A DNA stretch of 64,000 bases. It comes from Pelagibacterium sp. (GTDB taxonomy: Bacteria; Pseudomonadota; Alphaproteobacteria; Rhizobiales; Devosiaceae). The stretch lies in assembly GCF_035555455.1 (NCBI RefSeq), contig NZ_DATMGM010000037.1:84996-148995 (forward strand), in the 5' to 3' direction. Of the stretch, positions 5,722-60,319 are shown piece after piece; position 1 is the stretch's first letter; every line of letters starts with the position of its first letter. The translations under genes were made by a program, and so were the position numbers. The notes below the pieces were generated by a model. The model had not been told where the DNA came from and ran no database searches. It was given only the letters and a program-made list of their open reading frames with translations.

Positions 5722-7104
5722 ATGAAAAAAACACTCGTCATTCTCGCCGTTGGCCTCACCCCGTCCCTCGTCGGTGAATACACGCCCAACATTGCCAAGC
5801 TCGCGCGCCGGGGCGGCCAGCGCGCGCTCACGACGATTGCCCCGGCGGTGACCTGTTCCGTGCAGGCAACGCTGATGACCGGCCTTACTCCATCCGGCCA
5901 CGGCGCGGTCGCCAATGGCTGGTATTTCCGCGATACCTCGGAAGTCGCGTTGTGGAAGCAGTCCGACCATTTGCTGGATGGCGAGATGATCTGGGACGCC
6001 GGGCGCAAGCTTAATCCGGACTTCACCTGCGCCAAGATGTTCTGGTGGTACAATATGTATTCCAGCGCTGACTGGACTGCGACGCCACGCCCCATGTATC
6101 CGGCGGACGGGCGCAAGGTGCCCGACCATTACACCCAGCCGGGCAATCTGCGCGACGAACTCAACGCGCGCTTGGGCACATTCCCGCTCTTCAACTATTG
6201 GGGCCCGACCGCATCGCTGAAATCCACGAACTGGATCGTCGGCGCGACCCAACACGTTACCGAAACCCGGGACCCGACGCTCAGCCTCGTTTATATCCCG
6301 CATCTCGATTACGATCTTCAGCGGTTCGGGCCTGACCTGAGCCATCCGCGCGTGCAGCAATCGCTCCGCGACATGGACGCGGCCATCGCGCCATTGATCG
6401 AGCAGGCCGAGCGCGATGGGCGCGAGGTGATCATCGTTTCGGAATACGGCATCACGCCGGTCACAGAGGCCATCCATATCAACCGCGCCCTGCGCGAAGC
6501 CGGGCTCATTGCCTGGCGCGAGGAAATGGGCCGGGAGGTGATCGACCACGGCGCGTCGCGTGCCTTCGCCGTTCCCGACCACCAGCTCGCCCATATCTAT
6601 GTGCGGGACCCCAAGGACATCGAGTTGGTGTCGGGCCTGATTGCCGGGCTCGACGGCGTGGAAACCGTGTTGGGCGATGAGGGCAAGCGCGCCATTGGCT
6701 TGGATCACCCGCGCTCGGGCGAGCTGGTCGCCATCTCCGACGCCGATCGCTGGTTCTCTTATTATTACTGGCTCGATGACGCCAAAGCGCCGGACTACGC
6801 GGCCACCGTCGATATCCACCGCAAGCCCGGTTATGATCCGGTTGAGCTGTTCGTCGATCCGGAACTGACCCTGCCCATGGTGCAAACCATCTGGAAGGTA
6901 GGCAAGCGCAAGCTCGGGTTCCGGGGACTGCTCGACATCATCTCGGTCAATCGCACCGATCTGGTCAAGGGCTCCCACGGACGGATCACCGACCGGGAAG
7001 AGGATGGGCCACTGGTCATTTCCACCCGCCCCGACCTGTTGCCCGAAGGTCCCGTGGCAGCCACCGGGTTCAAGCAACTGGTGCTCGACCACGTTTTCAA
7101 CTGA
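5722..7104 (+). CDS. eboF: EboF, alkaline phosphatase/nucleotide pyrophosphatase family
   Basis: PAVTCSVQAT nucleophile region, PHLDY, SEYG, DIHRKPGYDPVELF, KGSHG; ebo context. Confidence 0.9.
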   Translation: MKKTLVILAVGLTPSLVGEYTPNIAKLARRGGQRALTTIAPAVTCSVQATLMTGLTPSGHGAVANGWYFRDTSEVALWKQSDHLLDGEMIWDAGRKLNPDFTCAKMFWWYNMYSSADWTATPRPMYPADGRKVPDHYTQPGNLRDELNARLGTFPLFNYWGPTASLKSTNWIVGATQHVTETRDPTLSLVYIPHLDYDLQRFGPDLSHPRVQQSLRDMDAAIAPLIEQAERDGREVIIVSEYGITPVTEAIHINRALREAGLIAWREEMGREVIDHGASRAFAVPDHQLAHIYVRDPKDIELVSGLIAGLDGVETVLGDEGKRAIGLDHPRSGELVAISDADRWFSYYYWLDDAKAPDYAATVDIHRKPGYDPVELFVDPELTLPMVQTIWKVGKRKLGFRGLLDIISVNRTDLVKGSHGRITDREEDGPLVISTRPDLLPEGPVAATGFKQLVLDHVFN

Positions 7105-32222: not shown

Positions 32223-32243
32223 TAGGCGGGTTTATAGGCGGGT
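32223..32243 (+). repeat. Integrase arm-type sites (TAGGCGGGT x2, 12 bp period)
   Basis: Direct repeats at 32223 and 32235 just before the integrase; matching pair at 34746/34758. Confidence 0.7.
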
Positions 32244-32249
32244 GCGATT

Positions 32250-32558
32250 ATGCCAAGAGTAGCGAAAGAACTATCCGCGTTGGAGGTGAAACGCCTCTCA
32301 GAGCCGGGGATGTACGCCGTTGGGGGCGTGCCTGGGCTCCATCTTCAAGTCCTCCCCGGCGGAGGAAAGACCTGGCTGCTGCGGGTCACTATCGGGGCGA
32401 CCGCGAGCGGCAAGCAGCGCCGCAGCGAGGTCGGCTTGGGCGGGTATCCGGCGGTGAAACTACAGCAGGCCCGGGACAAGGCGCGCGAGGTCCGGGAGAA
32501 GATCGCCCAAGGCATCGACCCGATAGCGGAGCGCAAGGCTGGGCGTTCACTCCGATGA
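32250..32558 (+). pseudogene. Truncated P4-like tyrosine integrase (only the Arm-DNA-binding/DUF4102 domain)
   Basis: MPRVAKELSALEVKRL..PG..GLHLQV..GG.KTW..R...GLGGYP.V.L.QAR.KA......GIDP; stops right after this domain, with no catalytic domain. Confidence 0.85.
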
Positions 32559-32670
32559 AGGGGCCGGGCGCGGGAAGGGGTTGGCCTTCAGCCTCCTGAA
32601 ATAGATTCTTGTAGATTTACTGAATCTGATACAAAATTGCGTGAATCGTAAATTCATGCAGGGGGCGTCA

Positions 32671-33408
32671 GTGACTACCGAATTCAACTTGCCGGGCTCC
32701 TCATTCGAGGAGATTCAGAAGATTCTCAAGGGATACAGCCATGCCCCAGAGCAGGCGTCCCTCGACCAGTTGTCAAAACTGACTGGACTTCACGCAACCG
32801 TTATCAGCAGGAATAACAAGTTCCTCTCCGACATCGGCCTCATCACAGGAGGCATGAAGAAAAGCTCAACCGAGTTGGGCAAGAAACTCGGGCGTGCCCT
32901 GGACCATAAGCAGGATGCCGATGCTCAGGGCTACTGGAAAGAAGCGGTCCAAACCAATGAGAAGGTCGCTGGGCTGGTCACTACCGTGCGCATTAAAGGC
33001 GGCATGACGGAAAACGAGTTCTCTGCGCACGTGCTGTATGTGTCCGGTCAAAAGAACAACGCAGGGAACAAGACCGGAGCCCGCTGTGTCGTTGATGTCT
33101 TACTCGCAGCGAACCTTCTTCAGGAGGAGAACGGCAAACTAGTTGTGTCTTCCGCTCCCGCGAAGGAGACGTCCGCTGACCTCAAGCTCGCCGTCCTTAC
33201 GCCCACACAGCCGACGACGCAGGAGAATGGCAATGGAGGTGGAGCCGAAACCCCGCTTCCCACCCTGCCCGTGATCCCGCAAACCTCGAACCTGACGCCG
33301 CAAATCGCAATCAATATCCAGCTACACCTGCCGGAAACTGAAAATGCAGAGGTGTACGAGAAGCTGTTCAAGGCGCTCCGCGAACATCTTCTCAGTCCGA
33401 AGGAATAA
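32671..33408 (+). CDS. DUF5343-like protein (wHTH-like N-terminus, low-complexity linker, conserved C-terminal module)
   Basis: C-terminal INIQLHLPETENAEVYEKLFKALREHL resembles the DUF5343 tail. GTG start with GGGGG RBS (alternative starts 32641/32656). Confidence 0.6.
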   Translation: MTTEFNLPGSSFEEIQKILKGYSHAPEQASLDQLSKLTGLHATVISRNNKFLSDIGLITGGMKKSSTELGKKLGRALDHKQDADAQGYWKEAVQTNEKVAGLVTTVRIKGGMTENEFSAHVLYVSGQKNNAGNKTGARCVVDVLLAANLLQEENGKLVVSSAPAKETSADLKLAVLTPTQPTTQENGNGGGAETPLPTLPVIPQTSNLTPQIAINIQLHLPETENAEVYEKLFKALREHLLSPKE

Positions 33409-33411
33409 TCC

Positions 33412-33939
33412 ATGGGGCTGGAGGACTGGACCGCCCGGGCGAGCAAAGCCCGCCGCTCGGCGCATTGGGCATTGGCAAAGCACGAAAGCGCCGCCTCCCG
33501 TGTCGTGCTCTTGGAGGACTTGACCAAGAGCCTGTCGGGCACCCCGGTGGACGTACAGGACTATTTCAGCGAGGCGATTTCATGCCTTGAAAGCGAGCTG
33601 TACAGGTCCGGGATCGTCCTCGCTTGGGCGGGACACTTCCATGTGTTCTCGGAAGTCTGTTATCAGAAGCATGAAGCGGACATCCGAGCTGCGCGCCCGA
33701 AATGGACGTTCAAGGACCTTGGAGAGCTGAAAGAGGCCATCGCTGAGTCCCACTTTCTGATTGTCGCTAAAGATGTGAAGTTCACGACCAAGGCTCAGCT
33801 ACGCATTCTTGATGGTCAGCTATCGCAGCGTAACCAGTGCGCACACCCGACGCTCTACCGCCCAAGCATGAATGCGGCTATCGGGTACGTTGACGAGTTG
33901 ATCCGACAGACGTTGTCTTATCTGCCCTCGTCACCATGA
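33412..33939 (+). CDS. HEPN-domain protein (putative RNase)
   Basis: EAISC....YRSGIV.AW helix and the Rx4H motif RNQCAH(P). Confidence 0.7.
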   Translation: MGLEDWTARASKARRSAHWALAKHESAASRVVLLEDLTKSLSGTPVDVQDYFSEAISCLESELYRSGIVLAWAGHFHVFSEVCYQKHEADIRAARPKWTFKDLGELKEAIAESHFLIVAKDVKFTTKAQLRILDGQLSQRNQCAHPTLYRPSMNAAIGYVDELIRQTLSYLPSSP

Positions 33940-34670
33940 GTGGATTCTCTCTTTCCCTACTCCAAGCCGTCAGCGATTGGCAGCGCGGCGGTGATGCCAA
34001 GCAAAACAAGAAACGCGGCGAGAGGCTGAAAGAGGTGTGTGCGTCCCTTCCCGAGAAGTACCGTACTTGCTCGCTATGTTGCTTTCGACAAGTTGGTTTG
34101 CCCAAGGGCGGCGTGTGGAATCTCATTGGCGAGGATCGCCTGCCCGAGAAAATATCATCATGGACGCTCGACCTTGAAGTGGCGAAGGGGTTCAAGGGAG
34201 GCGTACCGCCCGAAGGACAGGGGTATCAGGGCGTTATCCTTTGCGTGTCTCCCCCGCCCAGCTCTGTCATCATCAATCTGCGCGAGCTATACCGTGACCC
34301 GGACTTCACTGCGGCGCTAGAACAGCACAAGGGGAGTATCACCGGCTATCACGACGGAGCCGGACGCTACGGCAACAATCAAAGCGAAGTCGTGCTTGAG
34401 GTCGCCTCTGTCACGCAGCAGGACATCTACTCGATGGGCGGTCACTCAAGCCCCTTCGAGCAACTTGTAGATGAAGCCGCAAAGCTGGCCTATGGCCCCA
34501 ACGCAACCCCAGAGCAACGCGCGGCATTGCTGTTGAAAGCAGAGCACGTCCGATCCGAAGCAGGCCCAAAATGGTTGAGCTCGGAAGCGACGCAGCGCGT
34601 GGTCATAAAGATGAAGCCTCACGCGAAGCGGCTGCGTAAGATCAAGCGTCAGCAGGACGCCGCCAAGTAA
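33936..34670 (+). CDS. ADP-ribosyltransferase-like protein (R-S-E clade)
   Basis: Ordered motifs CFRQ, ISSWT..LEVAKGF, QSEVVL; ATGA overlap with the HEPN gene. Confidence 0.6.
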   Translation: MSGFSLSLLQAVSDWQRGGDAKQNKKRGERLKEVCASLPEKYRTCSLCCFRQVGLPKGGVWNLIGEDRLPEKISSWTLDLEVAKGFKGGVPPEGQGYQGVILCVSPPPSSVIINLRELYRDPDFTAALEQHKGSITGYHDGAGRYGNNQSEVVLEVASVTQQDIYSMGGHSSPFEQLVDEAAKLAYGPNATPEQRAALLLKAEHVRSEAGPKWLSSEATQRVVIKMKPHAKRLRKIKRQQDAAK

Positions 34671-34675
34671 CAAAA

Positions 34676-34696
34676 AAGCCACCGCAAGGGTGGCTT
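34676..34696 (+). terminator. Intrinsic terminator
   Basis: aagccacc-gcaag-ggtggctt immediately after the stop. Confidence 0.7.
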
Positions 34697-34745
34697 CTTC
34701 ATCGTCTTACAGCGCCTTATCCAGTAGCGTCCCACCACTTCGGGG

Positions 34746-34766
34746 AAGGCGGGCTTTTAGGCGGGT
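34746..34766 (+). repeat. Distal integrase arm-type sites (AAGGCGGGC / TAGGCGGGT, 12 bp period)
   Basis: Same motif, spacing and orientation as 32223-32243. Confidence 0.65.
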
Positions 34767-34810
34767 TCGCCCTGAAAACCACACGGAAAACCCACTAGAT
34801 ATGGCAAAAT

Positions 34811-34882
34811 TGGCGGGCCATGCGGGATAGCGATGAGAACTATATCTACTCCATAGCCCTCCATAGCCCTCCATAGCCCTCC
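34811..34882 (+). repeat. att-like direct repeat copy 1, with 3 tandem CCATAGCCCT units
   Basis: 34811-34872 matches 43947-44008 at 55/62 nt (first 19 nt identical). Confidence 0.85.
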
Positions 34883-43946: not shown

Positions 43947-44008
43947 TGGCGGGCCATGCGGGATACCGATGGGCACGATACCTACTCCATAGCCCTCTAT
44001 ATCCCTCC
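43947..44008 (+). repeat. att-like direct repeat copy 2
   Basis: 55/62 identity to 34811-34872; an inverted TATAGAGGGC at 43926 pairs with GCCCTCTATA at 43992. Confidence 0.85.
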
Positions 44009-60183: not shown

Positions 60184-60319
60184 CTTTGACCTGGTGATCG
60201 GGAAGTTCGAAACCGTGACTAGACGGCCCCATGGCCTTTAGGCGGGTAGCCCTGGACATACGCCATGGGCTCCCCGACCATAGGGTCAAGGAGTTTGGTG
60301 TCGTCACGGCCGACACCAA
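60184..60319 (-). other. Nested stem-loop region upstream of qseM (candidate cis-regulatory RNA or sRNA)
   Basis: Perfect 9 bp hairpin 60295-60319; 60184-60202 pairs imperfectly with 60273-60291; inner stem cccatgg/ccatggg. Confidence 0.4.

Follow-up and report, generated by a model that had tools for sequence, protein, structure and literature searches.

A HEPN-like gene pair and an ADP-ribosyltransferase-like gene, probably two independent modules at the end of a decayed integrative element in Pelagibacterium sp.

We analysed a 64,000-nt stretch of the Pelagibacterium sp. contig NZ_DATMGM010000037.1 (assembly GCF_035555455.1, positions 84,996 to 148,995), hereafter the window, which contains three intact, co-oriented genes, g1, g2 and g3 (Table 1). 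A 3-bp gap separates g1 from g2, and g2 and g3 overlap by an ATGA; the gene coordinates agree in this with an earlier note made from the sequence. The terminator that the note placed at the end of the operon was also found, as a hairpin with an 8-bp stem (dG −14.2, z −3.0) in which relatives carry a compensatory A-T to G-C change, though the hairpin is absent from the list of a consensus terminator scan. Because an A-run lies upstream and a T-rich tail downstream, the hairpin looks bidirectional, and its minus-strand version looks at least equal to the plus-strand one. The locus adjoins Hachiman, for which HamB was confirmed (PADLOC E = 0) and the HamA match was weak, and SPARSA, for which both the short pAgo (E-value of 5e-92) and the Sir2-APAZ protein (E-value of 2e-57) were confirmed against the 8in8 chains. 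The defence-island setting of the three genes, which had been proposed from these neighbours, is real.

Table 1. Coordinates of the genes and of the surrounding features in the window.
Feature	Position	Strand	Description
TAGGCGGGT doublet, 12 nt spacing, arm-type-site-like	32223-32243	+	just 5' of integrase fragment
Truncated tyrosine-integrase gene	32250-32558	+	102 aa; Arm DNA-binding domain only; PF13356 E 4.3e-21
Conserved mobile cassette	32537-34816	+	leader, g1, g2, (g3), hairpin, att-proximal arm
g1	32671-33408	+	245 aa; GTG start consistent with homologue N-termini
g2	33412-33939	+	175 aa; HEPN-like predicted RNase; Pfam PF27235 'AF_1680'
g3	33936-34670	+	244 aa; ADP-ribosyltransferase-like; unnamed family
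Terminator-like hairpin	34676-34696		also present in g1-g2-only elements
Second AGGCGGG doublet: AGGCGGGC, then TAGGCGGGT	34747-34766	+	att-proximal arm
62-nt att-like repeat, begins TGGCGG	34811-34872	+	second copy 43947-44008

Paired AGGCGGGT repeats flank the three genes. The TAGGCGGGT sequence occurs four times in the window, against 0.15 expected, with two copies at 32223 and 32235 and one at 34758; a degenerate AGGCGGG copy, read from the sequence, lies 12 nt upstream of the latter. These arm-like doublets agree with the earlier suggestion of arm sites at both ends. The accompanying suggestion that the three genes are the entire cargo did not hold, as a truncated integrase gene is present too. 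Related elements carry the same TAGGCGGGT doublet beside tRNA-Ser, and in relatives the cassette abuts the 3' end of the tRNA-Ser gene. DNA homology between the window and two other loci, L001 and L047, begins at 32537, and the last ~21 nt and the stop codon of the integrase fragment fall inside this cassette homology, which terminates at 34816 within the 62-nt att-like repeat. Since the integrase consists of the Arm DNA-binding domain only, the element is a remnant. We rejected a complete 2.7-kb mini-element on these grounds, the integrase being cut at the cassette junction.

The predicted model of g1 (pLDDT 77.5) shows helical, winged-helix-like domains at residues 10-160, for which winged-helix matches were weak, followed by a disordered and sequence-variable linker (residues 163-210; pLDDT below 50 at 163-206) and a nearly invariant C-terminal tail, QIAINIQLHLPETENAEVYEKLFKALREHLL (residues 211-242; 33301-33396). 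Similarity to the PDC-M34A model of PADLOC was found in the tail alone (E-value of 2.3e-9, profile positions 147-207/208), and hhalign aligned the 32 tail residues and nothing else (95.8%, E-value of 8e-9). The Pfam DUF5343 model, PF17278, gave no match to g1 at E ≤ 1. The previous description of g1 as DUF5343-like thus stands for its position, architecture and tail, but not for the Pfam model itself.

In g2, the Rx4H motif RNQCAH (33829-33846; R140-N-Q-C-A-H145 of 175 residues), to which the note had drawn attention, is present, and R140, N141, C143, A144 and H145 are invariant among 37 homologues. Relatives down to ~25% identity keep the motif as RN[AQE]C[AG]H. The HEPN pattern that it fits, Rx4-6H, usually takes the form R-[NDH]-xxx-H and lies close to the C-terminal helix. 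All g2 homologues carry a precomputed Pfam assignment to PF27235, and UniRef names one of them 'HEPN domain-containing'. We regard g2 as a HEPN-like, predicted RNase. No HEPN model in the Pfam copy that we searched, which was without PF27235, matched g2, and when distant relatives of g2 were scanned for a Pfam match that would bridge them to HEPN, only DUF4145 came up, at an E-value of 0.085. By hhalign, g2 has no similarity to Swt1-type HEPN (probability 0.1%), and the PDC-M34B models of PADLOC did not match it at E ≤ 1; one g2 homologue had a weak PADLOC match to PD-T7-3 (E-value of 2e-4).

All but one of the loci of g2 relatives with sufficient room have a g1-type gene upstream, and the partners of distant g2 relatives are bona fide DUF5343 proteins bearing the tail. 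On sequence grounds, g1 and g2 are a conserved unit. In gene order and tight linkage this unit is like PDC-M34, a PADLOC phage-defence candidate made up of a DUF5343 protein (M34A) and a Swt1-like HEPN protein (M34B). True PDC-M34 loci encode a DUF5343 protein with the same tail and then a Swt1-type HEPN protein. Like g1, the former begins with a winged-helix-type domain and continues through a variable linker to the same ~32-residue C-terminal tail; like g2, the latter has its Rx4H near the C-terminus. Consistent with the PDC-M34 architecture, g1 and g2 place a tail-bearing winged-helix partner directly upstream of an Rx4H protein. They differ from PDC-M34 in that the N-terminal region of g1 is unmatched by PF17278 and, outside the tail, by the PDC-M34A models, in that g2 is a PF27235 member with no match to PDC-M34B or HEPN_Swt1, and in that g3 is appended here. 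The g1-g2 type is already represented in PADLOC as candidate PDC-M34, yet the PDC-M34 models would not call the present pair; as far as their sequences tell, g1 and g2 are sister families of the PDC-M34 proteins. A literature search on PDC-M34, AF_1680 and DUF5343 returned no relevant paper, and a search for experiments on the g1, g2 or g3 families found none.

The pair mostly occurs without g3. Of the 32 metagenomic loci that extended at least 800 nt beyond g2, two had g3 there, and g1 and g2 lacked g3 in about 94% of the loci that we examined, as well as in the named genomes of Shewanella, Holophagales, Methylogaea and Zestomonas. In 400 genomes sampled from the phylum, g3 was present in one and the g2 family in six, with zero co-occurrence, and a genome of the same genus had neither g3 nor the g2 family. 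Loci with and without g3 interleave in the tree of g1 and g2, where the sister of the window, L057, is without g3 (support 99/94).

At the DNA level, g3 is an ORF-sized indel that lies precisely in the interval from the stop codon of g2 to the terminator. In five loci (L047, L056, L061, L062 and L075), DNA homology with the window breaks off at the stop codon of g2 (33926-33940), picks up again at 34658-34665 and continues through the hairpin to 34816. Where g3 copies stand in differing contexts, shared DNA homology is limited to the ORF. We therefore dismissed the idea that g3 is bordered by a conserved mobile flank or an attC-like site. An integron cassette was rejected as well, as the upstream contexts of g3 are unrelated operons.

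We found g3 relatives in 35 species genomes, of which only Methylobacillus and one alphaproteobacterial MAG also have g1 and g2. Elsewhere, the gene upstream of g3 encodes AbiEii (L010, L139, L140), Shedu SduA (L014; PADLOC E-value of 2e-177), Fic (L023, L025, L027), a PstI-type restriction enzyme (L035; two genes upstream in L002) or TIR+SLATT (L141); other upstream genes include PP2C, HAD and a prophage gene. Apart from the repeated AbiEii, Fic and g2, the 26 proteins upstream of g3 contained no conserved partner family. In about 11 distinct loci, the start of g3 and the stop of the gene before it share a 4-nt overlap. Partner types interleave in the g3 tree, in which the HEPN-associated L001 is sister to the restriction-modification-associated L002 (100/97). 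The loci show that g3 is not HEPN-specific: it recurs in last position in unrelated defence or toxin operons, where it is often coupled translationally; the status of g3 as a putative rider on such operons rests on about 15 identified cases. The earlier note had treated the triad as one system, and the conservation check that it proposed failed, with g1 and g2 mostly without g3, and g3 mostly with unrelated partners. As the triad is not a unit, g3 is therefore unlikely to be dedicated to the HEPN protein, either as its modifier or as its antitoxin, a role that had been suggested by analogy with HEPN-MNT.

The g3 family comprises 380 clusters at 50% identity from at least eight phyla, ranging from Pseudomonadota to Bacteroidota, Planctomycetota and Actinomycetota. 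Searches of Pfam (the copy without PF27235), NCBIfam and PHROGs with g1, g2 and g3 gave no match, PADLOC including its CmdT model matched neither g3 nor diverse family members, and profile searches of PDB sequences gave nothing meaningful. Profile and family searches thus provided no sequence-level link from g3 to a solved structure or named family, and no g3-like ADP-ribosyltransferase appears in those defence-discovery papers that we consulted. While the g1-g2 type is represented, g3 is uncatalogued.

The R, S and QxE motifs that had been recognised in g3 in the order of ADP-ribosyltransferases are present (R51, 34086-34088; S74-S75-W76-T77, 34155-34166; Q149-S-E151, 34380-34388), and they lie on the right strands of a confident AlphaFold2 model (pLDDT 89.3). 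F50-R51 is in β1 (strand 49-56), corresponding to the aromatic-Arg of R-S-E enzymes; S74-S75-W76-T77 is in β2 (strand 73-77), corresponding to the STS-like motif; and Q149-S-E151, corresponding to [Q/E]-x-E with its catalytic Glu, precedes β5 (strand 151-155), which starts with E151. In 55 close homologues, R51, S74, S75, W76, Q149 and E151 are invariant and T77 is nearly so. Among 55 diverse members, down to 24% identity, R51, W76 (55/55) and E151 (55/55) do not vary, and residue 50 is a Y or an F throughout. S74 is found in 48 members and S75 in 40; position 77 has T or S in 53, and position 149 has Q in 32 members and E in the other 23. Judging by this model, g3 is probably an R-S-E (cholera-toxin-like) ADP-ribosyltransferase-like protein with its core motifs in the correct order. 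Foldseek matches in the PDB were mostly to the ADP-ribosyltransferase fold at the top (DarT, Vis, cholera and pertussis toxin subunits, Tpt1/KptA, SpvB), and they were weak, with a best E-value of 5.7e-3 (7omx, DarT), TM of 0.2-0.3 and none at 1e-3. Against BFVD, the best match was a phiN3 phage protein (E-value of 7e-10), followed by phage Alt/Mod-type enzymes at 8e-3 and weaker. The core is flanked by basic helical extensions at the N- and C-terminus.

Several known systems resemble parts of the locus. CmdTAC (PD-T4-9) consists of CmdT, an mRNA ADP-ribosyltransferase toxin, the antitoxin CmdA and the chaperone CmdC (PMC9519451; PMC11618068). The likeness lies in an ADP-ribosyltransferase-like enzyme in a tripartite-looking operon with an anti-phage context; g3 differs in having neither a SecB-like chaperone nor a dedicated antitoxin, in its variable neighbours and in leaving the CmdT model unmatched. 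DarT, the top PDB match, is like g3 a small cytoplasmic ADP-ribosyltransferase on mobile islands, whereas g3 has the R-S-[Q/E]xE signature of the cholera-toxin-like clade, no sequence similarity to DarT and no adjoining DarG-like hydrolase gene in any locus examined. More generally, we found no conserved adjacent antitoxin dedicated to g3 (macro/NADAR hydrolase, CmdA+CmdC, ParS), its neighbours varying among loci. HEPN-MNT, a type VII toxin-antitoxin system, shares with g1 and g2 a small operon of a HEPN RNase and a protein partner. Unlike HEPN-MNT, the locus has no MNT nucleotidyltransferase, its g1 is a predicted winged-helix protein with a tail, its g3 has a predicted ADP-ribosyltransferase fold, and g3 is dispensable for g1 and g2 across relatives. 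Defence genes embedded within other immune systems have been described (Payne et al. 2024, bioRxiv 10.1101/2024.01.29.577857), and like these, g3 is an independent accessory gene inside or at the end of the operon of another system. In contrast to them, g3 is appended after the last gene rather than between the genes of one host system, and it accompanies many system types.

We observed the anatomy of the locus, its conservation, its indel structure and its switching of partners. The locus is probably a composite of two independent accessory modules on one transcript, at the att-proximal end of a decayed integrative element. The scheme that we infer covers all biochemical activities and the defence phenotype of g1, g2 and g3. 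In module A, g2 would be a HEPN-type RNase and g1 its obligate partner, with the winged-helix domains of g1 tethered through the disordered linker to the invariant ~32-residue tail. This tail may dock on the HEPN protein and hold g2 inactive, while the winged-helix part may repress the operon and/or sense an infection cue. Release of the RNase would lead to a growth stop, as in abortive infection or toxin-antitoxin behaviour. In module B, g3 would be a stand-alone, NAD+-using R-S-E ADP-ribosyltransferase, a separate effector that may modify a phage or host target, either protein or nucleic acid. The basic helical extensions at either end of g3 might restrain it, in place of a dedicated antitoxin; self-inhibition is our conjecture for how an active ADP-ribosyltransferase could lack an antitoxin. 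Given their tight ATGA coupling in the present lineage, g2 and g3 might still cooperate functionally at this locus.

Quite unlikely, in our assessment, is an obligate three-component system in which g3 either modifies and thereby regulates the HEPN RNase in an MNT-like manner or acts as a second effector wired to the g1 sensor. The overlap, the common terminator and the lack of a separate promoter would fit such a system, as would the g2-g3 junction, which is the same in Methylobacillus, the alphaproteobacterial MAG and two metagenome contigs. Against it stand the 30 of the 32 informative metagenome loci and the four named genomes in which g1 and g2 lack g3, the closest g1-g2 relative of the window, which likewise has no g3, together with the AbiEii, Shedu, Fic, restriction enzyme and TIR-SLATT partners of g3 elsewhere and the interleaving of partner types in the g3 tree. 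Many R-S-E enzymes also hydrolyse NAD+, and g3 could accordingly be a NADase rather than a transferase, or a catalytically silent ADP-ribosyltransferase-like fold serving as scaffold or sensor. The weak, low-TM fold matches and the lack of a sequence match to any ADP-ribosyltransferase family agree with this; the invariance of R51 and E151 and the Q/E alternation at position 149, which amount to an active R-S-E signature, argue against it, as do the motifs on their expected strands, and we consider it very improbable.

It is also conceivable, though unlikely, that g3 serves mobile elements, either in anti-defence like AcrIF11 or by modifying the host like T4 Alt/ModA/ModB, and simply travels with island and prophage operons that are expressed constitutively. 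Members of the family occur in prophage-like regions (L005, L007), near conjugation genes (L139, L002) and in eight IMG/VR contigs, and the best viral structural match of g3 is the phage protein mentioned above, ahead of the Alt/Mod-type enzymes. Like these stand-alone phage and plasmid ADP-ribosyltransferases, g3 is small and without an antitoxin, and AcrIF11 is mentioned as an anti-CRISPR ADP-ribosyltransferase in PMC12421852. However, none of 50,697 sequenced phage genomes matched g3 by tblastn and plasmids gave just three matches, the 4-nt overlaps of g3 are repeatedly with defence or toxin-antitoxin effector genes rather than with anti-defence clusters or aca-type regulators, and AcrIF11 was absent from the best 50 Foldseek PDB matches. 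Returning to the two-module composite, a bolder version of it, which we hold to be rather doubtful as a whole, is that g3 represents a new class of ORF-sized riders that have no promoter of their own. Riders of this class would settle in defence operons of the toxin type (those of HEPN, AbiEii, Fic, Shedu, TIR-SLATT and restriction enzymes), in the interval from the stop codon to the terminator, and become coupled translationally to the resident effector. As such, g3 would be a portable, self-inhibited second effector, a CapRel-like single chain with a built-in sensor or antitoxin domain, which may ADP-ribosylate nucleic acid, as its basic terminal extensions hint, and provide an extra layer of immunity to the system that it accompanies.

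For annotation, a three-component label should not be used for this locus, which is better described as two separate units, g1 with g2, and g3. The former extends the DUF5343-HEPN architecture of PDC-M34 by a second HEPN family and a second sensor domain with a common C-terminal tail; the occurrence of the same tail in both points to it as the functional link between partner and RNase. If g3 is active, its unnamed and widespread family of ADP-ribosyltransferases would join the enzymes known from bacterial conflict systems. Its repeated position at the 3' end of unrelated defence operons, without a dedicated antitoxin, would provide a simple genomic handle for 'add-on' immunity genes, and its rider behaviour bears on effector stacking in defence islands.

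The three genes at this locus, g1 (a tail-bearing partner), g2 (a HEPN-like predicted RNase) and g3 (an ADP-ribosyltransferase-like protein), had been read in an earlier note as a single operon forming a candidate novel defence or toxin system. The layout on which that reading was based is borne out by the coordinates: the three genes are co-oriented, with a 3-bp gap, an ATGA overlap and a closing hairpin. This hairpin has an A-run on its 5′ side and a T-rich tail on its 3′ side and is therefore bidirectional in appearance; it was not among the sites listed by a simple terminator scan.

Genes and flanking features of the locus, in window coordinates
Feature	Position	Strand	Description
g1	32671-33408	+	Intact ORF; GTG start agrees with the N-termini of 43 homologues
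g2	33412-33939	+	Intact ORF, 3 bp after g1
g3	33936-34670	+	Intact ORF; ATGA overlap with g2
Hairpin	34676-34696		8-bp G+C-rich stem; dG -14.2 kcal/mol, z -3.0; 6 bases past the g3 stop
Integrase fragment	32250-32558	+	102 codons; Arm DNA-binding domain only (PF13356, E 4e-21)

Homology to related cassettes extends over 32537-34816, and the junction of the cassette interrupts the integrase ORF. The right arm (hairpin, AGGCGGG doublet, ...GGCAAAATTGGCGG) adjoins the 3′ end of tRNA-Ser in Methylobacillus, Zestomonas and three metagenome contigs; the window itself holds no tRNA genes. Since the arm abuts tRNA-Ser in these relatives and the integrase is cut, the three genes sit at the att-proximal end of a decayed element whose family integrates at tRNA-Ser, within stacked defence cassettes. 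Four copies of the 9-mer TAGGCGGGT lie in the window, where 0.15 are expected: two directly 5′ of the integrase fragment, one past g3, and one far from the cassette, at 60239-60247. A degenerate copy, read from the sequence, lies 12 nt upstream of the one past g3. Beyond TGGCGG, the window carries a 62-nt att-like repeat with a second copy at 43947-44008. Its first 50 nt (34811-34860) match positions 5829-5878 of an Acidiphilium MAG (L007) at 84%, ~110 nt upstream of a g3 homologue, which suggests that the repeat may be a shared att site or element end rather than a local duplication. In Methylobacillus (L001 346-6735) and Zestomonas (L047 1-5528), a small element beside tRNA-Ser carries g1-g2(-g3) as its terminal cargo, together with genes for a serine resolvase and a terminase-large-subunit-like protein; this element looks like a phage satellite. 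The Hachiman and SPARSA neighbourhood named earlier was recovered downstream: HamB matched in PADLOC with E=0, the evidence for HamA was weak, and a short pAgo and a Sir2-APAZ protein matched the two chains of PDB 8in8 (E 5e-92 and 2e-57).

The conserved unit at this locus is the pair g1+g2. A g1-type or tail-bearing partner is encoded in all but one metagenomic g2 locus with upstream room, and the pair occurs without g3 in Shewanella, a Holophagales genome, Methylogaea and Zestomonas. We surveyed 75 metagenomic loci with g2 relatives, 32 of which had at least 800 nt downstream; g3 followed g2 in two of these 32 (L063, L092). Among 35 species genomes with a g3 relative, g1 and g2 were present only in Methylobacillus flagellatus and one alphaproteobacterial MAG. 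A 400-genome sample of the phylum contained g3 in one genome and the g2 family in six, with no co-occurrence, and a same-genus genome had neither.

Relative to elements with only g1 and g2, g3 is an ORF-sized indel. In five g3-less elements (L047, L056, L061, L062 and L075), DNA homology runs from window position 32537 or 32597 to the g2 stop (33926-33940), restarts at 34658-34665, and passes through the hairpin to end at 34816. Their junction consists of the g2 stop, ~8 nt and the hairpin; that of the window reads g2-ATGA-g3-TAA, 5 nt, hairpin. The stem shows a compensatory change, with GCCACC/GGTGGC in the window versus GCCGCC/GGCGGC in relatives. On the g1+g2 tree, one shallow subclade contains all four loci with g3, interleaved with seven that lack it, and the window's sister, L057 (92% identical, support 99/94), is without g3. 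Locus L059 still has the ATGA and ~25 nt of the 5′ end of g3, after which its DNA is different. This remnant and the different ORF behind it point to loss or replacement at the slot after g2, which may be a hot spot of cargo exchange. The ORF, within the stretch L059 3520-4136, encodes 162 aa with an Rx4H-like motif of its own (VRNNLFHG).

g1 has 208 relatives. Its alignment shows a linker that varies freely and an almost invariant tail of ~32 C-terminal residues (QIAINIQLHLPETENAEVYEKLFKALREHLL). An AlphaFold2 model of g1 has a helical region (10-160), disorder (163-206) and a C-terminal helix (226-240). Weak Foldseek matches of region 10-160 are winged-helix proteins: SelB WH2-4, MarR/SlyA, the BpuJI and N.BspD6I recognition domains, and BrxA. 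PADLOC's PDC-M34A, from the anti-phage candidate PDC-M34, matches g1 in the tail only (E 2.3e-9), as it does four g1 homologues, and hhalign of g1 against M34A aligned the 32-residue tail alone (95.8%, E 8e-9). True PDC-M34 loci encode, as M34A, a DUF5343 protein (PF17278, E 1e-43 to 1e-49) that also has a linker and a tail of the same kind and, as M34B, a Swt1-like HEPN (PF18731) ending in RNFIAH or RAPIAH; hhalign found no similarity between g2 and M34B. Upstream of distant g2 relatives (35-39% identity) lies a bona fide DUF5343 gene with the tail (E 1e-23 to 1e-40). Together, the tail-only match, the lack of similarity between g2 and M34B, and these DUF5343-partnered relatives place g1+g2 beside the DUF5343-HEPN architecture as a sister variant, which has the tail in common with PDC-M34 but differs in sensor domain and HEPN family. 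The pair is a new variant of a candidate system, PDC-M34, that is catalogued already, and g3 has no PADLOC entry. A literature search found no published experiment on a PDC-M34-type system. In L052 (1017-2166) and L055 (945-2136), tail-bearing DUF5343-type proteins precede a third kind of Rx4H protein (IRNPRGH, IRNPTTH), so the same tail partners at least three HEPN-like families.

Because of its Rx4H-type motif, external annotation and partner logic, g2 is very probably a HEPN protein. Precomputed annotation assigns all 189 relatives (90% clustering) to Pfam family PF27235 ('AF_1680'), and one bears the UniRef name 'HEPN domain-containing'. Residues R140, N141, C143, A144 and H145 do not vary among 37 sequences, and the motif keeps the form RN[AQE]C[AG]H in relatives as far as ~25% identity. 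A Pfam scan of g2 with a library copy lacking PF27235 gave no HEPN match. More distant relatives (24-31% identity, motif LRNACGHP) on metagenome contigs L116, L117, L119, L121-L124 and L127 are single proteins of ~250 aa in which an N-terminal winged-helix-like domain is fused to a g2-like domain, and are therefore one-protein versions of the pair. An ORF in L107 (11-844) joins a bona fide DUF5343 domain (E 8e-21), in frame and without linker and tail, to a g2-like HEPN domain; it is a natural fusion or arose by deletion.

One database has 362 clusters of the g3 family at 90% identity, and a larger representative library has 380 at 50% identity. Its members are almost always stand-alone 'hypothetical' proteins of ~235-255 aa without Pfam domains, and g3 had no match in Pfam, NCBIfam, PHROGs, PADLOC or PDB sequence searches. 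The AlphaFold2 model is confident (pLDDT 89.3, pTM 0.78). Its core (strand 49-56, helix, strand 73-77, helix, strands 97-104 and 111-114, a helical insert, strands 151-155 and 164-167) has the ADP-ribosyltransferase order of elements and is flanked by two N-terminal and three C-terminal helices. F50-R51 lies in strand 1, S74-S75-W76-T77 in strand 2, and Q149-S-E151 leads into strand 5. In 55 members with identity down to 24%, R51, W76 and E151 never vary, residue 50 is Y or F throughout, 48 members keep S74, and Q (32 members) alternates with E (23) at position 149; this pattern is the classical R-S-[Q/E]xE signature. Most top Foldseek hits in the PDB have the ADP-ribosyltransferase fold (DarT, Vis, cholera and pertussis toxin catalytic subunits, Tpt1/KptA, SpvB) but are weak (best E 5.7e-3, TM 0.2-0.3). 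We predict with high confidence that g3 is an R-S-E ADP-ribosyltransferase. Its acidic core and basic flanking helices (median pI ~9.3) are at most a hint of nucleic-acid binding.

Across genomes, g3 is a rider on other operons and switches partners. Immediately upstream of its relatives are AbiEi and AbiEii (L010, L139, L140), Shedu SduA (L014, PADLOC E 2e-177), Fic (L023, L025, L027), a PstI-type restriction enzyme (L035), a methylase, PstI-type enzyme and 188-aa gene (L002), a ThsB-type TIR with SLATT (L141), PP2C (L020), HAD (L019), and prophage HTH or lysis genes (L005, L007). In ~11 distinct loci with four partner types, the start of g3 and the stop of the preceding gene share a 4-nt overlap, and the remaining loci mostly have gaps below 100 nt. 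Partner types are interleaved on the g3 tree: L001 (HEPN) and L002 (restriction-modification) are sisters (100/97), the window's HEPN-linked clade includes a prophage copy (97/95), and the close sisters L033 and L037 have different partners. DNA homology between copies in different contexts stops at the ORF bounds. Two unannotated genes directly 5′ of g3 homologues (L002 5381-5947, L034 1292-1948) show, by eye, PD-(D/E)xK-like motifs (PDF...VKTVK and DIDVIG...VSCKSW) and may be further nuclease partners.

These data bear on three other readings. In the window, the coupling of the genes is what an obligate g1-g2-g3 triad would display; with g3 so rarely behind g2, and the pair so rarely beside g3, the single conserved triad proposed earlier does not hold, and we regard an obligate one as quite improbable. 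The earlier interpretation keeps its domain calls and loses its system boundaries. Alternatively, g3 could serve the mobile element or counter host defences, as an AcrIF11- or Alt/Mod-like enzyme. Its best match in BFVD is an uncharacterised protein of Sinorhizobium phage phiN3 (E 7e-10), followed by Alt/Mod-type phage enzymes with weak E-values, and three plasmid records contain g3, annotated 'hypothetical'; a tblastn search of 50,697 phage genomes found no g3. We consider such a role unlikely. That g3 is an NADase or a non-catalytic protein would sit with the weakness of the fold matches and, beside the invariant R51 and E151, is very improbable.

Our preferred reading, a conserved pair joined by a rider, goes beyond the observed anatomy, conservation, indel structure and partner switching in the mechanism that we propose. 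The docking tail of g1 would hold the g2 RNase inactive, and the winged-helix part of g1 would autoregulate the operon, sense an infection cue, or both; once freed, g2 would halt growth. g3 would act independently of g2 as an NAD+-dependent transferase, expressed through coupling to whichever operon it rides on. Because it has no conserved partner, with no antitoxin-like neighbour conserved at the loci examined, g3 may be controlled in cis by its own helical extensions. As an ADP-ribosyltransferase-like family, the g3 proteins are uncatalogued, and their genomic habit is unusual.
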